A DNA stretch of 64,000 nt from an uncultured Bacilli bacterium (GCA_905235705.1 CAJOML010000001.1:12118-76117), one strand, 5' to 3'; numbered from the stretch's first letter, positions 1 to 16,956 are shown. The notes: generated from the sequence alone by a model not told the origin. A program made the numbers and translations.

Positions 1-117
1 TTCTATGTCTGCGTTAATCTTGGTTATAACTACGTCCCCCCAGAACTCGAAAACCGCTCACTCCTCATCGATGGCGATTTAGGAGAAATCATCACCAGTT
101 TGGCAAAGGCAAAATAA
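1..117 (+). CDS. 3' end of an upstream CDS (C-terminal 38 codons, partial at window edge)
   Basis: Frame 1 is open from position 1 to a TAA at 115-117, followed by a hairpin terminator. Product is unidentifiable from the fragment. Confidence 0.3.
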   Translation, partial: FYVCVNLGYNYVPPELENRSLLIDGDLGEIITSLAKAK

Positions 118-150
118 AAATCCGAACCTATTCGTATATGCGGTTCGGAT
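107..150. terminator. Bidirectional rho-independent terminator (stem 120-128/142-150)
   Basis: Inverted repeat atccgaacc ...13 nt... ggttcggat. It is preceded by an A-run on the plus strand, which is a T-run for the minus-strand gene ending at 241. Confidence 0.55.
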
Positions 151-240
151 ATAAATGGCTTTTTGTCTTTATATGCCCATTTTGATACAAGGAACCGATT
201 TGGCTTTGGAGGAACCGCTTTTGAATCGACGGAACCACAT

Positions 241-2040
241 TTAGTAACGGTCGTCTTCATCATATGGATTATCTTCATTTTCCATATAATCATAAACCAT
301 ATAATTGACAAGCCTTCTTCTGACCTCTTCTTCAGGTAGTTCATCAACTAATTCCTCATATCTTTTACTTATTTCTTCGATTTTCTTATCGTATTCTCTT
401 TCTCTTTCTTCCAAATGTTCATAATAATGATTTCTTTCATCTATTGCTTGTTGGGCTTCATCAGGAAATATAGAAAAATACACCGCCATTTTATGCTTAC
501 AAATTGTTGATTTGCCAGCGGCATGAGGACAAGTGCAAGTGGATTTTCTAGGGTGGTTTATATTTAAATGAACATGATAATTTTCTGTTCCTTCTACTTC
601 GGCCTCATACTCATATTCATTTATTCTGTTTATTGATTTAACCCTATTGTTTTCGAAGTATTCTAGACCTCTCCAGTAAGAGTTATAACTACATATTTCT
701 CTCATTCCCATTATTGAATAATCTCCCAATACCCTGTTTTTCTCGATTCCATTCTCTTTAATATATCTTTTTTCATCACTATAAATAGTAGGTTTAGATT
801 TGCCTATTTTTTTAGATAATTCTGGAATAGTAATGTATTTGTTTTTTCTAATTTCACCTAGTATTGTTTTATCCAAATCGTTTATCTTATCGTTTATCTT
901 ATCATTTATCTTATCATTTAGAAAATTAGTATTTCTTAAAAATGTGAACGTGAAGCCAAATTCGTCGTTCTTATATTCGTAATCAACATTATTCTTAATA
1001 CACAAAGTAAAAGTTCTATCGAACCCGGTTCCAAATGCATCAATATATCCACACTTATAAAGGACTGATGCTATTAAAATATTCCGAATTTTGCTTCCAA
1101 TTTCTGATGAAGCAAATTTCATTGGATCTAAATTTTTATAAATTGATCCAGGATTATAGATGTTAATGGACGATTTAAAAATAACAATTTGATTGAAGTC
1201 GCCTTTAATATCATATTTACTATGAGCAAAACTATTAACTACTATCTCTCTAATGGCATTTAATGGAACTTCTGGCGTTTCAACTCTTTGTATGCCAATA
1301 ATATCCGATTTGTAGGAAATATGATTTTGAATATAAGAAGTTGCTTCCTTAATACACTCAAATATATTTCCTCTAAATTCTTTTATTTCACCAAACTCTG
1401 TCCTTGTATCTGTTGGATAATTAGCCTCTTTTAGCACAATTGGTTTTCCGTTTCCAAACAAATAGTAACCAGCTGTTTTTATTCTTCCGTTTTCATCAAC
1501 TAAATCCAGTTTAGTCAAAGCCTCACGAACATTTCTATATACATAATTCAGCCTGCCTTTGTCATTCGCAGTTCTAATAACATCAATAAGAAGTTCTTCA
1601 TCAATATCATCAAAAGAATAGTTAGTAGGTTTATCTTCCCATCTAGAATAATTGTCCTCTTTTTCTTCAAAATATTTTTGAAGCTGATTATTACTCATGG
1701 GAATATCGCCGTCGTCTACACGATAATAATAGCGGCCATAAGCCGAGTATGGAGTGTCGTCGCCTTCAACATAAACTCTAATGACGTCAACATTTTCATA
1801 TTTTATAGTCTTTACTTCTAGTTCAATCGGAAGAGGTTTTAAATTCGTTCTAATTTCATTAGAAATATCGGAAAGTGTTTTCTTTGAAATATCAAATCTA
1901 TAAGGCTTTTTTTCTGGAGTAATGCCAAAGAATAATTCACCTTTATGATTCTTATTCAGCATTGAGCTGAGTGAAATGACTCCTTCTTTCAATTGAGCCA
2001 AAGATTTTTTGTATTCGATAAGCGTGTTTTCGTCTTTCAT
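241..2040 (-). CDS. Schlafen/AlbA_2-domain protein with central ATPase-like/HTH region and C-terminal SWIM-type zinc finger; contains in-frame KIND x4 repeat
   Basis: 599-aa ORF. The N-terminus matches the AlbA_2 'divergent AAA' signature (EYKKS... GELFFGI...YRVDDGD). The C-terminus has C-x-C-x(n)-C-x-H (CTCPHAAGKSTICKH) typical of SWIM. GGAGG RBS 5 nt before the ATG. The gene is about 30-33% GC against about 47% in its surroundings. Confidence 0.65.
   Translation of the reverse strand: MKDENTLIEYKKSLAQLKEGVISLSSMLNKNHKGELFFGITPEKKPYRFDISKKTLSDISNEIRTNLKPLPIELEVKTIKYENVDVIRVYVEGDDTPYSAYGRYYYRVDDGDIPMSNNQLQKYFEEKEDNYSRWEDKPTNYSFDDIDEELLIDVIRTANDKGRLNYVYRNVREALTKLDLVDENGRIKTAGYYLFGNGKPIVLKEANYPTDTRTEFGEIKEFRGNIFECIKEATSYIQNHISYKSDIIGIQRVETPEVPLNAIREIVVNSFAHSKYDIKGDFNQIVIFKSSINIYNPGSIYKNLDPMKFASSEIGSKIRNILIASVLYKCGYIDAFGTGFDRTFTLCIKNNVDYEYKNDEFGFTFTFLRNTNFLNDKINDKINDKINDLDKTILGEIRKNKYITIPELSKKIGKSKPTIYSDEKRYIKENGIEKNRVLGDYSIMGMREICSYNSYWRGLEYFENNRVKSINRINEYEYEAEVEGTENYHVHLNINHPRKSTCTCPHAAGKSTICKHKMAVYFSIFPDEAQQAIDERNHYYEHLEEREREYDKKIEEISKRYEELVDELPEEEVRRRLVNYMVYDYMENEDNPYDEDDRY
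877..920. repeat. 12-bp tandem repeat ATCRTTTATCTT x3.7 inside the CDS (encodes KINDKINDKINDKIND)
   Basis: Direct reading: atcgtttatctt atcgtttatctt atcatttatctt atcattta. Confidence 0.9.
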
Positions 2041-2058
2041 ATAAGCTCCTCCGCTTCG

Positions 2059-2091
2059 AATTTATCTTATCATTTATCTTATCATTTATCA
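2059..2091. repeat. Same 12-bp repeat (ATCATTTATCTT x about 2.7) in the 5' leader of the AlbA_2-SWIM gene, 18 bp upstream of its start codon
   Basis: aatttatctt atcatttatctt atcatttatc lies between a TATAAT-like -10 (rc of 2116-2121) and the RBS. Confidence 0.9.
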
Positions 2092-2309
2092 ATAATTCCT
2101 ATGCATAAAAACGTAATTATAAGTGTAAAGAAATAGCTAGTCTGCAAAGCAAAAACGAGTCTCTTTCTAAGACTCCAAAAATGCGAAAAAGCCTTTGCAA
2201 TTTGGTTACTCCCTCTGGGTTCTGATACATACCTACTTTTTCAAAAAAATTCGATGTAATAAAAGAAAAAATCCCTAATACGAATCGTATCAAGGATTGT
2301 GTACTTAGA

Positions 2310-2396
2310 TGGTGGCCCCCGTCGGACTCGAACCGACACCTGCTCATCACAGAGTGGATTTTGAGTCCACCGCGTCTACCATTCCACCAGGGGGCC
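2310..2396 (-). tRNA. tRNA-Leu (anticodon CAA), type II with long variable arm
   Basis: The reverse complement folds as a cloverleaf: GGCCCCCTGGTGGAATGGTAGACGCGGTGGACTCAAAATCCAC...GGTTCGAGTCCGACGGGGGCCACCA. Anticodon loop is CTCAAAA. CCA is encoded. Confidence 0.9.
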
Positions 2397-7448: not shown

Positions 7449-8612
7449 TTACCATTTCGAAATCATCTCGGATATTTCTTTGAAATATGCGTCGTTTGCC
7501 TCTTCACGGAACTCTAGATTAGAAAGCGTTAACGAGCCCCCGTATTCGGTGTTGTTATTTAGGAGGCTTAAAGATAATGTGGCTTTGGATGGGTTTTTGT
7601 CCTCACTTCCATAATCAAGCGATAGGCTAGCTTTGGCGAGGTTTGATTCTTTGAGGAACTGCGATTCTGCGGAAAGATCATGGAGATAATCATTGGCGAT
7701 GCTAATTGCCGTCTCATCGAAAGCGATGTCATAACGGTTGAGGCTCTCTTCTTGCGTGGAGGTCACCAAGGTATGATGAAGGATGCCATTGATATCTCTT
7801 TTTTCCTCGCTTGATTTAGGGAGGATAGCTCCTTGCTTAGCAAAGGAGGCAAAGAGGTCCTGCGAGAAGAAAGAGTAGGGGTCAAAGGAGGGCAAATCGC
7901 TGGGAAGGGGTTCCTCCACCTTATGGAAATAACGAGGTTTCGTCTGTTTGCTCTTTTCGTCAACCGTCGTTAAGGCTAAGGAAACTTCCCCATCGATAAG
8001 GAAAATTTGAAGTTTCTCATCCTCTAATTTGGCTAGCCCCAAATCAACGTTAGAAAGAAGCGACTCATAAGTCTGATAAATCTCTGAAGAGGTTTCCTCT
8101 TCTTGTTTGAAGAAATCAAGGATGTTCTCTAAGACGGATTTACCTAAATCGGGATCGATGGAGAAAGACAAATGGATATTAGGAACCCCATCTTCGGTTT
8201 TTTGCCATTTTGAATCAAATAGAATCGAAGGGAGATTCAAGGAAGCTTTCGACGCGTTAACCGATAAGGCGGCACGGCCTTTTGCCCCGTGGAATAAGGG
8301 CGAATTAGAGTAGACCCTAACGGGACAAATCGAGGTTAAATTCCCGCAAGTTGCAGTGATTTTGACGTCTCCTAGGGCTTTTGCCGTCAATAATCCATTC
8401 CCGTCGACCGAAACGATATCAGGGTTGGAAGAAACATAACTAACGGGCTCGCTTCCAAAGTTAGGTTTAGCCGAAAGAGCGAAGGTTTTACCCACTTCTA
8501 AATTGACATGGTCAAGATTAAAAACCAATGCGGTAGGCTCACTTATAGAAGGGCCACAGCTAATTAGGGGAATCAGGCAAAGGGTAAGAAGAGAAAGATA
8601 ACGATGTTTCAT
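7449..8612 (-). CDS. Lipoprotein with Big_2 Ig-like domain, likely partner of the downstream-encoded ABC exporter
   Basis: Signal peptide with lipobox LISC|G. Region resembling Big_2 (SSNPDIVSVDGNGLLTAKALGDVKITATCG). GAGG RBS before ATG 8612. The ATG at 8630 has no RBS. Confidence 0.6.
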   Translation of the reverse strand: MKHRYLSLLTLCLIPLISCGPSISEPTALVFNLDHVNLEVGKTFALSAKPNFGSEPVSYVSSNPDIVSVDGNGLLTAKALGDVKITATCGNLTSICPVRVYSNSPLFHGAKGRAALSVNASKASLNLPSILFDSKWQKTEDGVPNIHLSFSIDPDLGKSVLENILDFFKQEEETSSEIYQTYESLLSNVDLGLAKLEDEKLQIFLIDGEVSLALTTVDEKSKQTKPRYFHKVEEPLPSDLPSFDPYSFFSQDLFASFAKQGAILPKSSEEKRDINGILHHTLVTSTQEESLNRYDIAFDETAISIANDYLHDLSAESQFLKESNLAKASLSLDYGSEDKNPSKATLSLSLLNNNTEYGGSLTLSNLEFREEANDAYFKEISEMISKW

Positions 8613-8622
8613 ATTCGATACC

Positions 8623-11196
8623 TCATTCAACCGATTTTAAGGACTCGACCGCCATGATGCGGCGGATCCTGAATGTTAATAGCAACGTGATAAAGACAGA
8701 AAGGAAGAAGGTAAATCCAAAGGCGATGCCATAAGTAAGGGGATATACGGTGTAGAGGAAGTCGACGATTTCAACTTGGTTGATAAATAAGACCAACTTG
8801 GTAAAGGGGAAGCCTAAAGCAAGGCCGCCTAAAATACCAACAAGGGATAATGAAATGGTTTCCACCAACAACGAGACCATAATTTCGATTTCCCTAAAGC
8901 CAAGGACTTTCATGGTGGCGATTTCCCGTGCCCTTTCTTTGAAATTGAGCAAGGCGAGGTCATTTAAAACGACGACGGCAAGTAAGAAAGCGAAGACCTT
9001 AATCGCGTTGGTCATGACCAAAACCGAACTCATGGCCGATTCGATGCGTTCGCGCCAAACTTGTTCCGAAGCGACTGAGCCAGCGCCCGGAATTGCGCGG
9101 GCGATTTCCATCGCGCTTTCTTGCTTTCCAGGCATAGCGTCCATCCAAACGGCATTAAAAGAAGTGACACGTCCGCCGAAATTGGTCGAATCGGCATGGA
9201 CAAAGATCCCATTATCGTAGAATGCCGGGATGATGGTGGAGACCCTGAAGGAAGAATCGCCTTTGCCAACGTTGAAACGGACTTCATCGCCGATTGTGAT
9301 TTGCAATGCGCGGGCGACTTTTTCGGTCACTAGGACTTCATCTAAGGGGAAATCGTATTGGAAGTGTTTTCGCGCTTCGCCTCCGCCGACAAGATGATAA
9401 TCATCTAGGATATGGACGACGCCGAAATAAGAAGTCTTTGGCGAGATGATGTTCATCGATTCGCGTTGGAAAGATTGATAGCCATAGATGAGGGAATTCC
9501 CGCTATCGTCTTTGACGGAGAAATCATTTTTTAATTTGTCTACGGCTCTAGATTCGATCAAATATAAAGTCGCATCCGCGCCGGAAGTGATCAAAGGATC
9601 GGTATCAACGCCATAACGGATCGTATCTTCGATGCCGAATCCGCAAACCAGAAGGGCCGTGCATCCTAAAACGCCAATCACGACCATCGCCGATTTGACC
9701 CAGTCGCCACGAATGCTTCTCCCTGCCATTTTGAGGGAAAGCTGCCAGAGCCTTTTATCCTTGAAGGAGCGGATCTTCTTTTCTTTTTGCGAAGGAGGCA
9801 AAGGACGCATCGATTCGACTGGCTTACGCTTAATCTCGCGTCTAGAGATGCCATAAGTCACAAGCATGGCGACGCCGATGAAAATAACGGCTGCGGCTAG
9901 GCCTGCCCAAACCGGGAAATAGTAAGTACGCGCAGGCAAAGAATAAAGTAACGAATATTTATTTCCCAGAATCGCCGGAACGATTAAAGGTCCTAAGATC
10001 TCGCCGATTAAAGTCCCCAAGCCGACAAGAAGGAACGTTTTCAAGAAGAAGTGACCATGTATCTCTTTTCCGGTGATACCTAGGGCTTTAAAGGTGCCGA
10101 TTTCAGTCCGTTCGCGCAAAATCATTTGCCGCACTGAAATCAAGATGACAAGCAAAGCCACGGCGAAGAAGACGACGGGGAAAACGTATGTTAATTGGGT
10201 TGCCTGCTCCGCCTCGGTTCGGATAGTGAGAATGGGGGTGGATTCATCTAAGGTCTGGCATAGATAAAGATTGTTTATGGGCTTAGATGCGAAATAATTT
10301 TGGATTTGTGTTTTGGCTTGTTTCGCATCGCTTCCTTGTTTTAGGCGGACAAGATATTGGTTGGCGGCAGGGAAATTGGAAGCATCCCCTTTGGGATTGC
10401 CATCCCCCCACCCAAGCAAATCTTTGAAGCCGTTTTCCCAGATTAATTTGACGCCGGCCTCGGAAAAGGTGCTGGCCATCGTTTCATACATGGAGTCTCT
10501 AAAATAGGAAGAAGAGACCATAAACATCGTCGGGGAGAATTCGCCTCTAGCGGTATCTTCGAGGTGTTTCATTGCCCCTGTGACCTTAAAATTCAATTCG
10601 ATTTTGCCATAACGGAAGGGATTCTCTTTGCCTTCGAGGAGGAATCCATCAAGCATCGCAAGGGTGGTTTCCTTGATCGAGAAACTAGAAACGTCGAAGC
10701 TCATCAAAGCCGGACCACCAAGAGTTAAGGCATCGCCTTCTTTAGCCTGATTTGCATCGACAAGATAAGAATCTACCATGAAATAATGGTCTTCTGTTTG
10801 CTCTTCTGTCTTTTCAATTAATTCATACGGCTTGGACATTGAGCCGATAGTGGGGGAGATAACGGAGATGGCATTGCGGGAAGCCATCGTGCAAAAAGAA
10901 TAAAAACGGGATTCGACGGCTTCCAGGTTATCAACATACGAAAACAAATTCACGGCATCGCTAGGATCGGCGGCTTTACGTGGATCGGCGGTGACGTAAA
11001 TATCGGGGGTATTTGACTCGGCGATCATCTTATCGATGCGAGATTCCAATGACCCGGAGTTAGCTAAAAAGCCGCTGAAAAGGGTGATGGCGATGCCACC
11101 GATCGCAATAACGGCAAGAGACTGCGCCCAATCGGCAAGATTTTGCCTCGCCGCCAAAGAAAGGAATATGGAAGTAAGGCTGCGCTTTTTCACCAT
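8623..11196 (-). CDS. ABC transporter permease, FtsX/MacB-type with two FtsX domains and large extracytoplasmic domains
   Basis: 857 aa with 8-10 TM segments arranged as two FtsX-like 4-TM bundles. Its start overlaps the upstream ATPase gene. Confidence 0.8.
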   Translation of the reverse strand: MVKKRSLTSIFLSLAARQNLADWAQSLAVIAIGGIAITLFSGFLANSGSLESRIDKMIAESNTPDIYVTADPRKAADPSDAVNLFSYVDNLEAVESRFYSFCTMASRNAISVISPTIGSMSKPYELIEKTEEQTEDHYFMVDSYLVDANQAKEGDALTLGGPALMSFDVSSFSIKETTLAMLDGFLLEGKENPFRYGKIELNFKVTGAMKHLEDTARGEFSPTMFMVSSSYFRDSMYETMASTFSEAGVKLIWENGFKDLLGWGDGNPKGDASNFPAANQYLVRLKQGSDAKQAKTQIQNYFASKPINNLYLCQTLDESTPILTIRTEAEQATQLTYVFPVVFFAVALLVILISVRQMILRERTEIGTFKALGITGKEIHGHFFLKTFLLVGLGTLIGEILGPLIVPAILGNKYSLLYSLPARTYYFPVWAGLAAAVIFIGVAMLVTYGISRREIKRKPVESMRPLPPSQKEKKIRSFKDKRLWQLSLKMAGRSIRGDWVKSAMVVIGVLGCTALLVCGFGIEDTIRYGVDTDPLITSGADATLYLIESRAVDKLKNDFSVKDDSGNSLIYGYQSFQRESMNIISPKTSYFGVVHILDDYHLVGGGEARKHFQYDFPLDEVLVTEKVARALQITIGDEVRFNVGKGDSSFRVSTIIPAFYDNGIFVHADSTNFGGRVTSFNAVWMDAMPGKQESAMEIARAIPGAGSVASEQVWRERIESAMSSVLVMTNAIKVFAFLLAVVVLNDLALLNFKERAREIATMKVLGFREIEIMVSLLVETISLSLVGILGGLALGFPFTKLVLFINQVEIVDFLYTVYPLTYGIAFGFTFFLSVFITLLLTFRIRRIMAVESLKSVE

Positions 11197-14830: not shown

Positions 14831-15612
14831 TTTCCTTTTTCCACGTATTTGATTTTGGCGAAATCACTTAGCGAAGCTCTCTCGCACATTTGATTATAAA
14901 CCCGATTCCTTAAATCTTCTTGGGCTTGCTTGCCGGGAAGTTCGAAATTGGGGAAGAACGGACCATCGATGTAGGTGCGGATTCTGACTTTGTCTTTTCC
15001 CCGTTTATGATAAGTGTTGGTAAAGCAAAAGACGGGGGCGCCATAATAAACAGGATAAATAAAGGAGTCGCTCACGAAGGGGCGGATTCCCGTGTAATAA
15101 GGCCAAAGATGGGCTTCGGGATAGATGAAAATCGGCTTTTGCTGTTTGACCCTTAATTCGATTGCCTTATCAAAATTGGCCTTGGCTTCTTTGTCCCCAG
15201 GGAGCGGGAGGCCGCCTAAAAGAGGGACGTATTTGCCAATGCCGGGAATAAAGCAATTATTTGGGTGAACGATGACGTTGATGGAGCGGGGGAAGACCAT
15301 AAATGCCGGCATCAAAGCGTCCCCGATGATCTGGGTGTGGTTGCCATAAAGGAAGATGGCGTTCTTTTTATAGGCTTTTAATTTCCATTTTCCCACGATT
15401 TCATGACGGAACTTAATCTTTAGATAGAGTTTGGCAAGAGGGGTGGCGATGACACGGAAGACGAAAAAATGTGCGACTTTTCCCCAAAAGCCGTTATTCC
15501 GGATATAACGATAATCCTTGCCAATGTGGTCAGCATGGATTTCCATGGTCGAAAATTCGTCATGGAGAGGATCGGAATAATAAATTGTTTCGGGCAAATT
15601 TTCTTTTGCCAT
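14827..15612 (-). CDS. Putative acyltransferase (PlsC-like fold, divergent)
   Basis: 261 aa with an H-x5-D and YPEAHLWP-like motif. Lies within a lipid/glycolipid operon. Weak assignment. Confidence 0.45.
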   Translation of the reverse strand: MAKENLPETIYYSDPLHDEFSTMEIHADHIGKDYRYIRNNGFWGKVAHFFVFRVIATPLAKLYLKIKFRHEIVGKWKLKAYKKNAIFLYGNHTQIIGDALMPAFMVFPRSINVIVHPNNCFIPGIGKYVPLLGGLPLPGDKEAKANFDKAIELRVKQQKPIFIYPEAHLWPYYTGIRPFVSDSFIYPVYYGAPVFCFTNTYHKRGKDKVRIRTYIDGPFFPNFELPGKQAQEDLRNRVYNQMCERASLSDFAKIKYVEKGK

Positions 15613-15623
15613 ATGAGACTACA

Positions 15624-16634
15624 TTAAGCGATTTCGCGAAGTCTTTCAAGAAGCTCGGAGGTAATTGGGTTGGTTTCAAGGGCTTTGCTATAACGTTTGG
15701 TTTGGATGCGGCGGAGGAAATTGTCGTGACGTTGGATCTCTTCCTCACAGACGGCCATCAGGGCAGGGGCAACGTTATTTTCGGCTTCTAATTTCTCGGG
15801 GGTGATGGAAGCGAAATGGCTCTTGATTTCAAGATAATCAGGAGATTGGGATGCATATTTCCAGAAATAGGTGCTATAGTTGCAGTTGATATCGTGCCAA
15901 GGCTTGGCGGCGAAAGCGTAATGGATGATGCCATAATCGCGTTCGGAAACGTTCCAAAGGCGGATGGCTTCCATGTTCCAACGACGGGGAAGCAAATGAA
16001 CTTTGTTTTTGCAAATGACGTTGAGGTAGTCTTGGTCTTGGGCGACAACAAAGTTATAGAAGGAAACGAGTTGGATGAATTGACCAAGGACGTCTTTTTT
16101 ACGCCACATATCGCAGTTGATGATCATCATGCCGGCGTTGAAATATTTGCGTCTGCTGATGCCAAGGACCTTTTCGGTATAACGTCCGGTGGGATCCATG
16201 CTCGTCATGACGGCTTCATTGACGGCGCCGACATAGTTATGGCCGATGTTGATATCGTAAAGTTTGGCGACGTCAGCGACGATAGCGGTGTCGGAGTCAA
16301 TATAAAGAGCTTTGTCATATTGAGGGAATTTGGTCGCGATGACGAAACGATAATAGGTTGAAGCGGAATAATAATCGCGAATCGGGAGTTGATCGACGAC
16401 CTGGGCGATCTCGGATTCGATATTATGGAATTCAATCGAGGCGTTGGGTTTAGCCATTGCGATAAACTTGGCTTGGGTCTCCTCGTTAATGTCGGTATGT
16501 AAAATATGGATCTCGTAACGGCGACGAGCAGAGATATTGCTAAGCAATGAAATTAGGGCGACTCCCATAAACGGAGTGAAGCGCTGGTCGCATCCGAAGA
16601 ATACGGGGACGACGGGTTTTTTGGAATTTGCCAT
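15624..16634 (-). CDS. Glycosyltransferase family 8 (glycolipid/LPS-type glucosyl- or galactosyltransferase)
   Basis: YIDSDTAIVADV DxD motif, NAGMMIINC and the HYAFAAKPW C-terminal GT8 motif. Confidence 0.75.
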   Translation of the reverse strand: MANSKKPVVPVFFGCDQRFTPFMGVALISLLSNISARRRYEIHILHTDINEETQAKFIAMAKPNASIEFHNIESEIAQVVDQLPIRDYYSASTYYRFVIATKFPQYDKALYIDSDTAIVADVAKLYDINIGHNYVGAVNEAVMTSMDPTGRYTEKVLGISRRKYFNAGMMIINCDMWRKKDVLGQFIQLVSFYNFVVAQDQDYLNVICKNKVHLLPRRWNMEAIRLWNVSERDYGIIHYAFAAKPWHDINCNYSTYFWKYASQSPDYLEIKSHFASITPEKLEAENNVAPALMAVCEEEIQRHDNFLRRIQTKRYSKALETNPITSELLERLREIA

Positions 16635-16956
16635 GGATGATACCTCCTTCTGGCAGGCTTATCTTACCCAAAAATATGGAAAAAACCAGTCTATTAGAAA
16701 AAACATGTCAAAAAGAGACGTAACAACCTTTAAAAGAGAGTTATTTATCGATGGGAACTTTTAAGAGAAACATAAGAAGTAGCCGAAAGAAAAAGGACTA
16801 ATTATTTTGATTTTTCCGATATGTCAATTTCTTAGGAGTTCGGAAAATTTTTTCATGGATGCGGTTGCGAAGATACGGATTTTTAATCCATTTTGAAACC
16901 TTAAATTGCATTTTTGGGCTCTTGAAGTATGCTTATTTGGACTTGGAGGAACGCCT

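Follow-up and report, generated by a model that had tools for sequence, protein, structure and literature searches.

Does an open reading frame (ORF) that joins a Schlafen nuclease domain to a SWIM zinc finger represent an evolved protein architecture, or two genes that have run together? The question is raised by an uninterrupted ORF of 599 amino acids on the minus strand, at positions 241..2040 of a 64,000-nucleotide (nt) stretch of DNA from an uncultured Bacilli bacterium (GCA_905235705.1 CAJOML010000001.1:12118-76117), hereafter the window. A sequence-only reading had described this locus as an AT-rich single-gene islet beside tRNA-Leu(CAA), encoding an unusual Schlafen/AlbA_2-HTH-SWIM fusion that might be a stand-alone defence or abortive-infection module. 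Comparison with relatives indicates that the ORF is almost certainly a two-gene cassette that a frameshift has placed in one reading frame, the first gene (gene 1) encoding a Schlafen nuclease, an ATPase and a helix-turn-helix domain, a combination called a Schlatpase-HTH, and the second a small SWIM protein.

When the full ORF was searched against 5.8 billion protein clusters, the top 120 homologues examined were all 365-466 amino acids long, covered 57-77% of the query and lacked SWIM. Alignment shows that homology to this family breaks off after KSKPTIY, at residue 420, in the middle of the recognition helix of a winged helix-turn-helix (wHTH) domain, and three-frame translation shows that the +1 frame still encodes the normal family C-terminus, KRMESRKTGYWEIIQ, followed by its stop codon. 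DNA alignment with two related loci, L003 and L001 (loci are cited by such numbers throughout), places a single clean 14-nt gap in the window directly after ACTATTTATAG, at 778..779 on the minus strand and inside the recognition helix, where relatives carry GCACATAGAAGGTT; comparison with L004, L005 and L093 also bears on this site. Downstream of the gap, 23 out-of-frame codons (SDEKRYIKENGIEKNRVLGDYSI; 712..780, minus strand, from three-frame translation) bridge the two genes as far as M444 of the fused ORF, which is the ATG of the SWIM gene. This ATG (709-711) overlaps gene 1's own stop codon (711-713) in a TAATG coupling junction at 709..713 on the minus strand, as it does in L004, L005 and L093.

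The undamaged arrangement is preserved in two metagenome contigs, L093 and L094, which share 93.3% nucleotide identity with the window over 1,981 nt (window 164-2122). Their gene 1 has 447 amino acids and retains the 14 nt (GCACATAGAAGGTT), and it meets a 156-amino-acid SWIM gene at the TAATG junction. The two-gene arrangement is also found in a third metagenome contig, L004, at 95% nucleotide identity to the window and in a different genomic context, and because the flanks of L093, L094 and L004 are unrelated to those of the window, the cassette is a mobile unit of about 2 kb. From the break to the start of SWIM the window is identical to L005 save for the deletion, which argues that the fusion event was recent. 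What the window copy retains of the wHTH is its N-terminal two-thirds (residues 387-419; 784..882, minus strand; Pfam HTH_24, 1.4e-5, above the gathering score). The near-invariant residues R421, H422, R434, S435, R436, K437, G439, Y440 and W441 have been lost to out-of-frame sequence, so that the complete C-terminal wHTH of the family is missing from the window copy, and these residues are present in L093.

A naturally evolved single-gene Schlafen-HTH-SWIM fusion, working as a stand-alone defence or abortive-infection protein, would fit an ORF that is unbroken, that contains four Pfam domains above threshold and that retains its nuclease and ATPase motifs, and the joining of two normally adjacent, coupled genes could be tolerated. 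Yet its joint is made of out-of-frame gene 1 codons created by the 14-nt deletion, the most conserved wHTH residues are gone, and the surrounding DNA is otherwise identical to that of intact relatives, hence a recent event. Nor does the fusion recur: no second Schlatpase-SWIM fusion was found among the top 120 relatives of the ORF, 99 relatives of the SWIM protein or the best 150 of 817 SWIM cluster representatives, and the exact 599-residue product has no record in the protein collection searched. Natural fusion is thus very unlikely, and the joint is, as comparison with the relatives has it, a mutational accident that damages gene 1 and not a natural architecture. The domain calls of the sequence-only reading hold, with Pfam hits above gathering scores for AlbA_2, the central ATPase/HTH region and a SWIM finger of the form C-x-C-x9-C-x-H, and so does its 599-amino-acid gene; the single-gene islet and the unusual fusion to SWIM do not, the intact cassette consisting of two coupled genes of 447 and 156 amino acids and none of the relatives just listed having the fusion.

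Gene 1 begins with a Schlafen (AlbA_2) nuclease domain (1696..2031, minus strand) that matches SLFN_AlbA_2 (PF04326) over residues 4-115 (1.2e-13; 52.1 bits against a gathering cut-off of 25.3). The catalytic motif of prokaryotic Schlafens (pSlfns), defined as Ex4(E/D)xK by Perez Taboada et al. (Nat Microbiol 2026, PMC13056530), is present as E4-NTLI-E9-Y-K11 (E4-x4-E9-x-K11); E4 and E9 are invariant in an alignment of 61 homologues, for which the conservation of K11 was not reported. S25-S-M-L-N29, with N29 invariant, sits where a SAFAN-like Schlafen box is expected and is a candidate for that box. The GHKL-type ATPase core (955..1248, minus strand), recognised by the motif definition of a recent preprint (10.64898/2026.05.29.728809), comprises an N-box (E265/N269), NPGS at 296-299 and DAFGTGF at 334-340, and matches HATPase_c_4 (PF13749) over residues 283-362 (9.6e-11; 42 bits against a cut-off of 26); E265, N269, G298, G337, G339 and the NPGS and DAFGTGF boxes are invariant among the same 61 homologues. 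An AlphaFold2 (AF2) model, with a predicted local distance difference test (pLDDT) score of 80, finds a full-length fold match in PDB 3LMM (DIP2311; Foldseek E 1.6e-19, 462 aligned columns), followed by the nuclease domains of SLFN12, SLFN13, SLFN14, SLFN5 and SLFN11, the tRNase domain of SAMD9, and the GHKL kinases PDK and HK853. Between gene 1 of the window and that of L093 there are 31 synonymous and 8 nonsynonymous differences, which implies purifying selection on gene 1.

Apart from its broken HTH, gene 1 is a Schlatpase-HTH, a known class and the commonest among prokaryotic Schlafens. The pSlfn-HisKinase-HTH architecture accounts for 19.2% of 5,930 prokaryotic Schlafens, more than any other pSlfn architecture (PMC13056530), and the combination of SLFN and GHKL domains, named the Schlatpase supradomain, occurs in 58.6% of 103,533 prokaryotic SLFN proteins, most of them small and carrying, at most, a short C-terminal HTH in addition (10.64898/2026.05.29.728809). 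The same preprint describes an ATP-driven tetramerisation of the supradomain that assembles the Schlafen site and leads to tRNA cleavage and protection against phage.

The SWIM gene encodes 156 amino acids (M444-Y599 of the fused ORF) and a stop codon (241..711, minus strand), and its product consists of a zinc finger (window 472-579), then a long helical hairpin, then an acidic tail. SWIM (PF04434) is matched at residues 488-523 (3.5e-5, above the gathering score), and the C-x-C-x9-C-x-H ligands are C502/C504/C514/H516. Searched by itself, the segment 444-599 finds 99 relatives, none above 190 amino acids; almost all have 153-157 amino acids, are covered over 100% of the length, reach up to 97% identity and open with the same MG(M/L), the first methionine being nearly invariant. 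The wider family comprises 817 representative clusters, mostly of stand-alone proteins of 140-180 amino acids. The few longer relatives place the SWIM module before an AAA+ ATPase, before PRiA4_ORF3 or before some 450 unannotated residues, or behind a Macro domain, and among the best 150 SWIM cluster representatives the long members carry SWIM at or near the N-terminus and never after a Schlatpase.

Forty SWIM loci, a sample selected through SWIM itself, were examined for gene order, the close subfamily being defined by at least 60% identity to the SWIM protein of the window. In almost every close locus with upstream sequence, a Schlatpase-HTH gene or a vestige of one (GYSEVIK or LLEIIN, each ending at a stop codon) lies directly 5' of the SWIM ATG; the vestige of L102 and L112 was assigned from L006, not read directly, and L098 was grouped with L007-L010 by an identical upstream ORF of 62 amino acids. 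Direct reading of the junction gave TAATG in eight loci (the window and L004-L010) and in L093, and TGATG in L104. The Schlatpase partners fall into three subfamilies with only 23-39% mutual identity, whereas the SWIM proteins remain 60-75% identical, a disparity that argues for a functional two-gene unit or, at least, persistently selected linkage. Gene order and relatedness thus argue for the Schlatpase-HTH and SWIM genes forming a real two-gene unit. No description of the pair was found in the literature searched, neither the main text of PMC13056530, where the word SWIM does not occur, nor that of the preprint 10.64898/2026.05.29.728809 mentioning a SWIM partner, and the literature likewise held nothing relevant on SWIM in anti-phage systems. 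The two-gene Schlatpase-HTH and SWIM cassette appears to be new; the class to which gene 1 belongs was already known.

SWIM genes keep other company as well. They lie directly 3' of AAA_14-DUF4143 ATPase genes in L006, L102 and L112 of the close subfamily and in L113-L115 and L117, whose SWIM proteins are 43-47% identical to that of the window and follow the ATPase gene after only 13 nt. The AAA_14-DUF4143-type gene of L006 matches PADLOC PDC-S01 (E 2e-95), and the Pfam domains were confirmed for one of the distant genes, that of L114. These arrangements suggest that SWIM has paired repeatedly with defence candidates, and with those of more than a single family. On the Haliovirga abyssi plasmid pHIC (L131, 2271-3681) a PRiA4_ORF3 gene is followed, after a gap of 1 nt, by a gene for a GHKL-only 'ATP-binding protein' akin to the Schlatpase ATPase, and PRiA4_ORF3 is elsewhere fused to the same N-terminal SWIM module (protein P0277 was noted with this locus), which hints at a shared network of SWIM, PRiA4_ORF3 and GHKL proteins. 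A distant 157-amino-acid SWIM protein of Staphylococcus aureus (L129, PLSDB NZ_CP077866.1), 39% identical to that of the window, lies near femA/femB, trpA and an oligopeptide ABC transporter; the 'plasmid' record looks like a fragment of chromosome, and this SWIM gene appears to be a core gene and not a defence gene. Finally, the 3.1-kb metagenome contig L010 holds at 638-2501 two SWIM copies, each with the 62-amino-acid upstream ORF, that form a perfect inverted duplication; this may be an artefact of an assembly hairpin.

Damage to the cassette is widespread among the close SWIM loci. Complete intact pairs are found in L093/L094 and L107; gene 1 is intact beside a truncated SWIM in L120, and is unbroken as far as the contig edge in eight loci. 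It is frameshifted, internally deleted or 5'-truncated in nine (the window, L004, L005, L101, L103, L104, L105, L108 and L121). Only a vestige is left in L006, L102 and L112, where it stands behind the AAA_14-DUF4143/PDC-S01-type gene, and in L007-L010 and L098, with SWIM also truncated in L112. On this tally, the cassette has a quick turnover, and the window allele is only one among its many damaged copies. The ratio of nonsynonymous to synonymous substitution rates (dN/dS) of SWIM is 0.05-0.28 in every comparison, orphan copies included, and SWIM is thus under purifying selection. An antitoxin-like rule, by which SWIM always stays intact while gene 1 decays, was weakened by the truncated SWIM genes of L120 and L112, by the selection of the sample through SWIM and by the occurrence of intact Schlatpases that have no SWIM.

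The same tally bears on whether the 14-nt gap is an error of assembly or sequencing and the genome in fact holds an intact two-gene cassette. The locus invites such doubt, being repeat-rich and strain-variable, and many close variants of the cassette coexist in gut metagenomes. The only other contigs from the same strain (L091 and L092; 99.99-100% identical, with the exact glyA protein), assembled independently from other samples, start at window 2043 and 2353, which suggests that assemblers struggle here. L091 breaks exactly at the start of the Schlatpase gene and L092 inside the tRNA. Neither contig reveals an empty site or the deletion, and their breaks suggest that in natural populations this locus differs between strains or contains multi-copy sequence. 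However, a clean loss of 14 nt in non-repetitive, non-homopolymer DNA is atypical of any sequencing platform, and no fewer than eight further loci, each assembled independently, have similar lesions, both frameshifts and truncations, so that decay is genuine in this family. An artefact is accordingly unlikely, if less so than a natural fusion.

A second feature of gene 1 is a set of tandem 12-nt repeats. One copy (GATAAGATAAAT and variants; 869..922, minus strand, found by repeat search) encodes a NDKINDKINDKIN linker just before the wHTH, and a second lies 21-50 nt 5' of the start codon (2061..2090, minus strand), where it overlaps a promoter-like site, TTGATA-17-TAAGAT (2064-2092, minus strand). 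The 12-nt motif has 3 matches in the window against 0.01 expected, and the upstream and linker copies share a 30-nt match that 0 of 200 shuffles reached. In seven loci of the window's subfamily the best match between upstream region and gene body is 25-33 nt long and lies at 84-85% of gene length, again with 0 of 200 shuffles reaching it. The repeat pair is seen in the window, L001, L003, L093, L133, L135 and L136, and also, with other units, in L120 (GTTGGTGATAAA) and L107 (ATAGAG(T/G)GACAA), members of other subfamilies in which the best upstream match once more falls at the linker. In one of the two Schlatpase-HTH genes of L135 (L135a), whose linker reads NDRINDRIN, the same GATAGG variant in place of GATAAG appears in both copies, so that the two co-vary; L135a has a PTINRH helix, and a co-variation of protein with DNA is suspected. 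The repeats may be candidate operators for the wHTH, the second site lying in DNA that codes for a tolerant linker; the literature searched held nothing relevant on repeats or autoregulation of PF04326/PF13749 proteins.

The repeats also mark the ends of deletions. L101 (2300-2815) and L104 (300-590) have undergone exact repeat-to-repeat deletions, as judged against L120 and L107, that removed the nuclease-ATPase part and kept the promoter, a wHTH remnant of 75-82 amino acids and SWIM; such deletions may be either a by-product or a switch. In L101 an L107-type upstream element is stacked between tRNA-Leu(GAG) and the L120-type promoter, remnants thus piling up at one hotspot. The design is not universal: four Schlatpases at a greater distance (L123, L126, L130 and L132) lack it, as does the paralogue L135b. 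L135 contains two paralogous Schlatpase-HTH genes (8001-9329 and 15549-16853), 6 kb apart among ordinary neighbours, the second having no tetrapeptide linker and carrying in its upstream region two copies of an inverted-repeat motif, ATATGCAAAAAAA..TTGCATA. A role of the linker repeat as an internal promoter was unsupported, the -35-like element arising, by eye, at the border of the upstream repeat and missing from the linker copy.

The cassette (164..2122, minus strand, delimited by its identity to L093/L094 and by base composition, and including its own promoter region) is clearly foreign where it stands. Its GC content is 0.312 against 0.458 for window 2400-64000, with values of 0.26-0.35 over roughly 150-2250 and about 0.45 to the right, and GC at third codon positions (GC3) is 0.24 in the 599-amino-acid ORF against 0.465 in glyA. 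These differences indicate a foreign origin, and the islet was acquired horizontally from a low-GC donor (about 30% GC); the flanks of related cassettes elsewhere themselves have a GC content of 0.27-0.34. To the left lies the 3' end of a host gene read from the sequence (1..116, plus strand; ...ITSLAKAK and stop), of host-like composition and running off the window edge. Between it and the cassette a hairpin at 120..150, a putative terminator for both convergent genes, folds significantly whichever strand is taken (RNA folding of 105-175: -20.1 kcal/mol with z -4.5, and -14.7 kcal/mol with z -3.3) and has a U-run on the minus strand, which makes 'bidirectional terminator' a reasonable description. 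Likeness to other loci ends at window 164-183, and just 3' of the SWIM stop codon, inside the conserved end of the cassette, there is a 20-nt tandem direct repeat (AGGAACCGATTTGGCTTTGG / AGGAACCGCTTTTGAATCGA, 70% identical, window 190-229). On the other side, an AT-rich spacer with two terminator-like hairpins (2157..2298, minus strand; hairpins at 2270-2298, just after the tRNA, and at 2157-2175) separates the gene from an intact tRNA-Leu(CAA) (2310..2396, minus strand; ARAGORN, and Rfam RF00005 at 53 bits), which lies upstream of the cassette and is co-directional with it. Part of this spacer, window 2218-2312, is 86% identical to L003 1120-1214, and the tRNA is the only RNA element in the islet above the Rfam threshold. 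Beyond it the right flank holds housekeeping genes, among them glyA, DUF362, an acyl-ACP thioesterase, a cation efflux gene and MarR. The AT-richness, the tRNA and the terminator of the sequence-only reading were all corroborated, and its statement that no integrase accompanies the gene holds for the called genes of the rightward 10 kb; of the left flank the window includes only 116 nt.

Insertion at the tRNA of the integrase type was rejected for want of an att-like repeat: the window contains no second copy of the tRNA 3' end, with up to 3 mismatches allowed, and no direct repeat linking the tRNA end to the far border. Origin from a phage or plasmid was likewise rejected, 2.9 million viral contigs yielding no relative of SWIM and two distant relatives of the Schlatpase, and annotated plasmids and phages few distant matches. 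The host is a gut bacterium. Its glyA is 66-72% identical to that of the nearest species-representative genomes (Bacilli, Erysipelotrichaceae and Ca. Enteromonas metagenome-assembled genomes), and since these relatives are too distant and none has a tRNA-Leu near glyA, comparison of synteny is uninformative.

A further alternative is that the neighbouring tRNA matters, either because the nuclease targets type II tRNAs or because the cassette depends on the tRNA gene; the sequence-only reading itself allowed that the adjacency may be coincidental. Eukaryotic SLFN11 and SLFN13 do favour type II tRNAs, and three of the five tRNA-adjacent loci, the window included, involve tRNA-Leu, numbers too small to interpret. 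In a scan of 14 loci, cassettes or remnants were found downstream of, and co-directional with, tRNA-Leu(GAG) in L101 (2142-2226), tRNA-Leu(CAG) in L112 (1340-1424), tRNA-Thr in L107 (113-186) and tRNA-His in L121 (1140-1216, some 3.5 kb from the remnant), alongside the window at 2310-2396; the fetched flanks of the other ten (L001, L003, L004, L005, L093/094, L099, L103, L118 and L120) contained no tRNA. Against a functional link, then, stand tRNA-Thr, tRNA-His or no tRNA at other loci, three Leu isoacceptors with differing anticodons (CAA, GAG and CAG), an intact tRNA with two terminator-like hairpins between it and the gene, and characterised pSlfns that cut several tRNAs. Sites downstream of tRNA genes are, moreover, a general property of variable regions, and the data fit such a general hotspot. 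A specific link of the nuclease to tRNA-Leu is unsupported, and a functional role for the adjacency is the least probable of the alternatives considered here, bordering on negligible.

What the cassette might do can be outlined from its better-studied relatives. In the intact cassette, gene 1 and SWIM are translationally coupled through TAATG. Oligomerisation would assemble Schlafen active sites, by analogy with RzAgo SLFN-pAgo (a Schlafen-prokaryotic Argonaute protein), RorSlfn5 and EcoSlfn7, and to judge from the same relatives the assembled sites may cut tRNA anticodon arms and so shut down translation during phage infection. The sequence patterns suggest that the wHTH is a regulatory or sensing module that probably binds the 12-nt direct repeats at the promoter and in linker DNA, and that SWIM may be an accessory partner, whether adaptor, sensor or inhibitor. 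In the window, the 14-nt deletion shifts the frame so that the native stop is skipped, the 23 out-of-frame codons are translated and SWIM is read, giving a 599-amino-acid chimera deprived of the end of the recognition helix and the wing of the wHTH. With its wHTH broken, this allele has most likely lost its activity or its regulation in recent times, and it takes its place among the many copies of the cassette that are decaying.

The best explanation overall, which blends the frameshifted two-gene cassette with a function in tRNase defence, is in our judgement probable, the chances of the defence function taken by itself being about even. The idea of a stand-alone defence module survives in part: gene 1 is a genuine pSlfn, and papers from 2026 tie its class to anti-phage tRNA cleavage, but its neighbours are housekeeping genes and not a defence island, and the intact cassette has two genes. 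Some related loci do have defence-type neighbours, namely restriction-modification (R-M) genes, AbiJ, AAA_13, RelB (L005) and HipA (L004). Separately, a more distant 454-amino-acid Schlatpase of Mycoplasmopsis arginini (L130, NZ_LR215046.1) sits inside a type I R-M locus, with hsdS genes and a tyrosine recombinase on one side and hsdR on the other, in agreement with the R-M association in the SLFN-pAgo preprint.

Several points weigh against this explanation. The 14-nt deletion could in principle be the assembly error considered above, and the chimera, its nuclease and ATPase motifs being untouched, might keep activity. No defence genes occur within about 10 kb of the right flank of the window cassette, the left flank lying outside the window, and other close homologues sit among ordinary genes. 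HisKinase-type pSlfns tested in Escherichia coli gave no protection against the phage panel used (PMC13056530), and defence by tRNA cleavage would be extended to the small Schlatpase-HTH class by analogy with other pSlfn classes. As for the pairing itself, no SWIM gene lies downstream in six close Schlatpase-HTH genes sampled independently of SWIM, and intact Schlatpase-HTH genes 59-90% identical to gene 1 of the window exist without it; the six SWIM-less genes imply that SWIM is dispensable, an accessory in a minority.

Some of the same observations could instead point away from immunity altogether, to a module of mobile DNA that binds DNA and regulates itself or works by addiction, the nuclease being its toxin and SWIM an antitoxin-like partner or regulator. 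Purifying selection maintains SWIM in many loci where gene 1 has degraded, the promoter is overlapped by direct repeats resembling operators, and the cassette occupies many unrelated contexts devoid of defence neighbours, some with toxin-antitoxin-type genes (the RelB and HipA of L005 and L004). The SWIM-less Schlatpase-HTH genes show, however, that SWIM is no required antidote, L120 has a truncated SWIM beside an intact gene 1, and it is for anti-phage activity that Schlafen-domain relatives have demonstrated roles; a module of this kind is a doubtful proposition, though a stronger one than an artefact. Rather more credible than an addiction module, and still less likely than not, is a joint reading in which prokaryotic Schlafen immunity would have a two-gene variant, so far unrecognised, in this cassette. 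The tRNase would have SWIM as its sensor, adaptor or brake; the wHTH would autoregulate through iteron-like 12-nt repeats at the promoter and in linker DNA, allowing looping by the ATP-driven tetramer; and the repeat pair would serve as a switch for a 1.15-kb deletion that removes the toxic nuclease-ATPase and leaves wHTH and SWIM. If this were so, the window fusion would be a natural 'Rosetta stone' for a physical interaction between Schlatpase and SWIM.

Since small Schlatpase-HTH proteins form the largest prokaryotic Schlafen class, the locus is of use beyond this genome in offering three handles on how such proteins sense and are silenced: a conserved, translationally coupled SWIM partner that also occurs 3' of PDC-S01, a defence candidate of no relation to it; a candidate operator, present at the promoter as well as in linker-coding DNA, whose sequence changes along with the gene; and natural deletion and fusion alleles that reveal dispensable parts. 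It also carries a warning for annotation, as an 'unusual domain fusion' seen in a single genome can be a frameshift joining neighbouring genes.

Set beside known systems, gene 1 has the same modules in the same order (PF04326, PF13749 and a C-terminal HTH) as the HisKinase-HTH pSlfns of PMC13056530, that is, the small Schlatpase-HTH proteins, from which the window copy differs in having lost the end of the HTH and in running on into the gene behind it. The AlbA_2-GHKL-HTH layout is shared, at 15% sequence identity, by DIP2311 of Corynebacterium diphtheriae, whose structure (PDB 3LMM) comes from structural genomics. The mammalian proteins SLFN11, SLFN12, SLFN13 and SLFN14 and the tRNase domain of SAMD9 match the N-terminal domain in structure and have the same acidic catalytic motif, at 14-18% identity; compared with mammalian SLFN proteins, however, gene 1 has the equivalent of the C-lobe only, and its ATPase is of the GHKL type, not a superfamily 1 (SF1) helicase. 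The 156-amino-acid SWIM protein matches PADLOC PDC-S62, as other small SWIM proteins do, but over profile positions 12-118 of 566 (E 4e-16), and since only the N-terminal fifth is matched it is no member of PDC-S62, from which it differs as a stand-alone module with a helical hairpin and acidic tail. Its identity to the eukaryotic SWIM proteins ZSWIM8 and Shu2/SWS1 is 16-18%, and it has neither the cullin-ligase nor the Rad51-paralogue context. The closest mechanistic comparison is with RzAgo SLFN-pAgo of Runella zeae, which has the Schlatpase supradomain in common with gene 1 and for which the model runs from ATP to tetramer, SLFN site, tRNA cleavage and abortive infection. RzAgo senses DNA by its RNA-guided Argonaute core, whereas the only candidate sensors in the window cassette are the wHTH and the separate SWIM protein.

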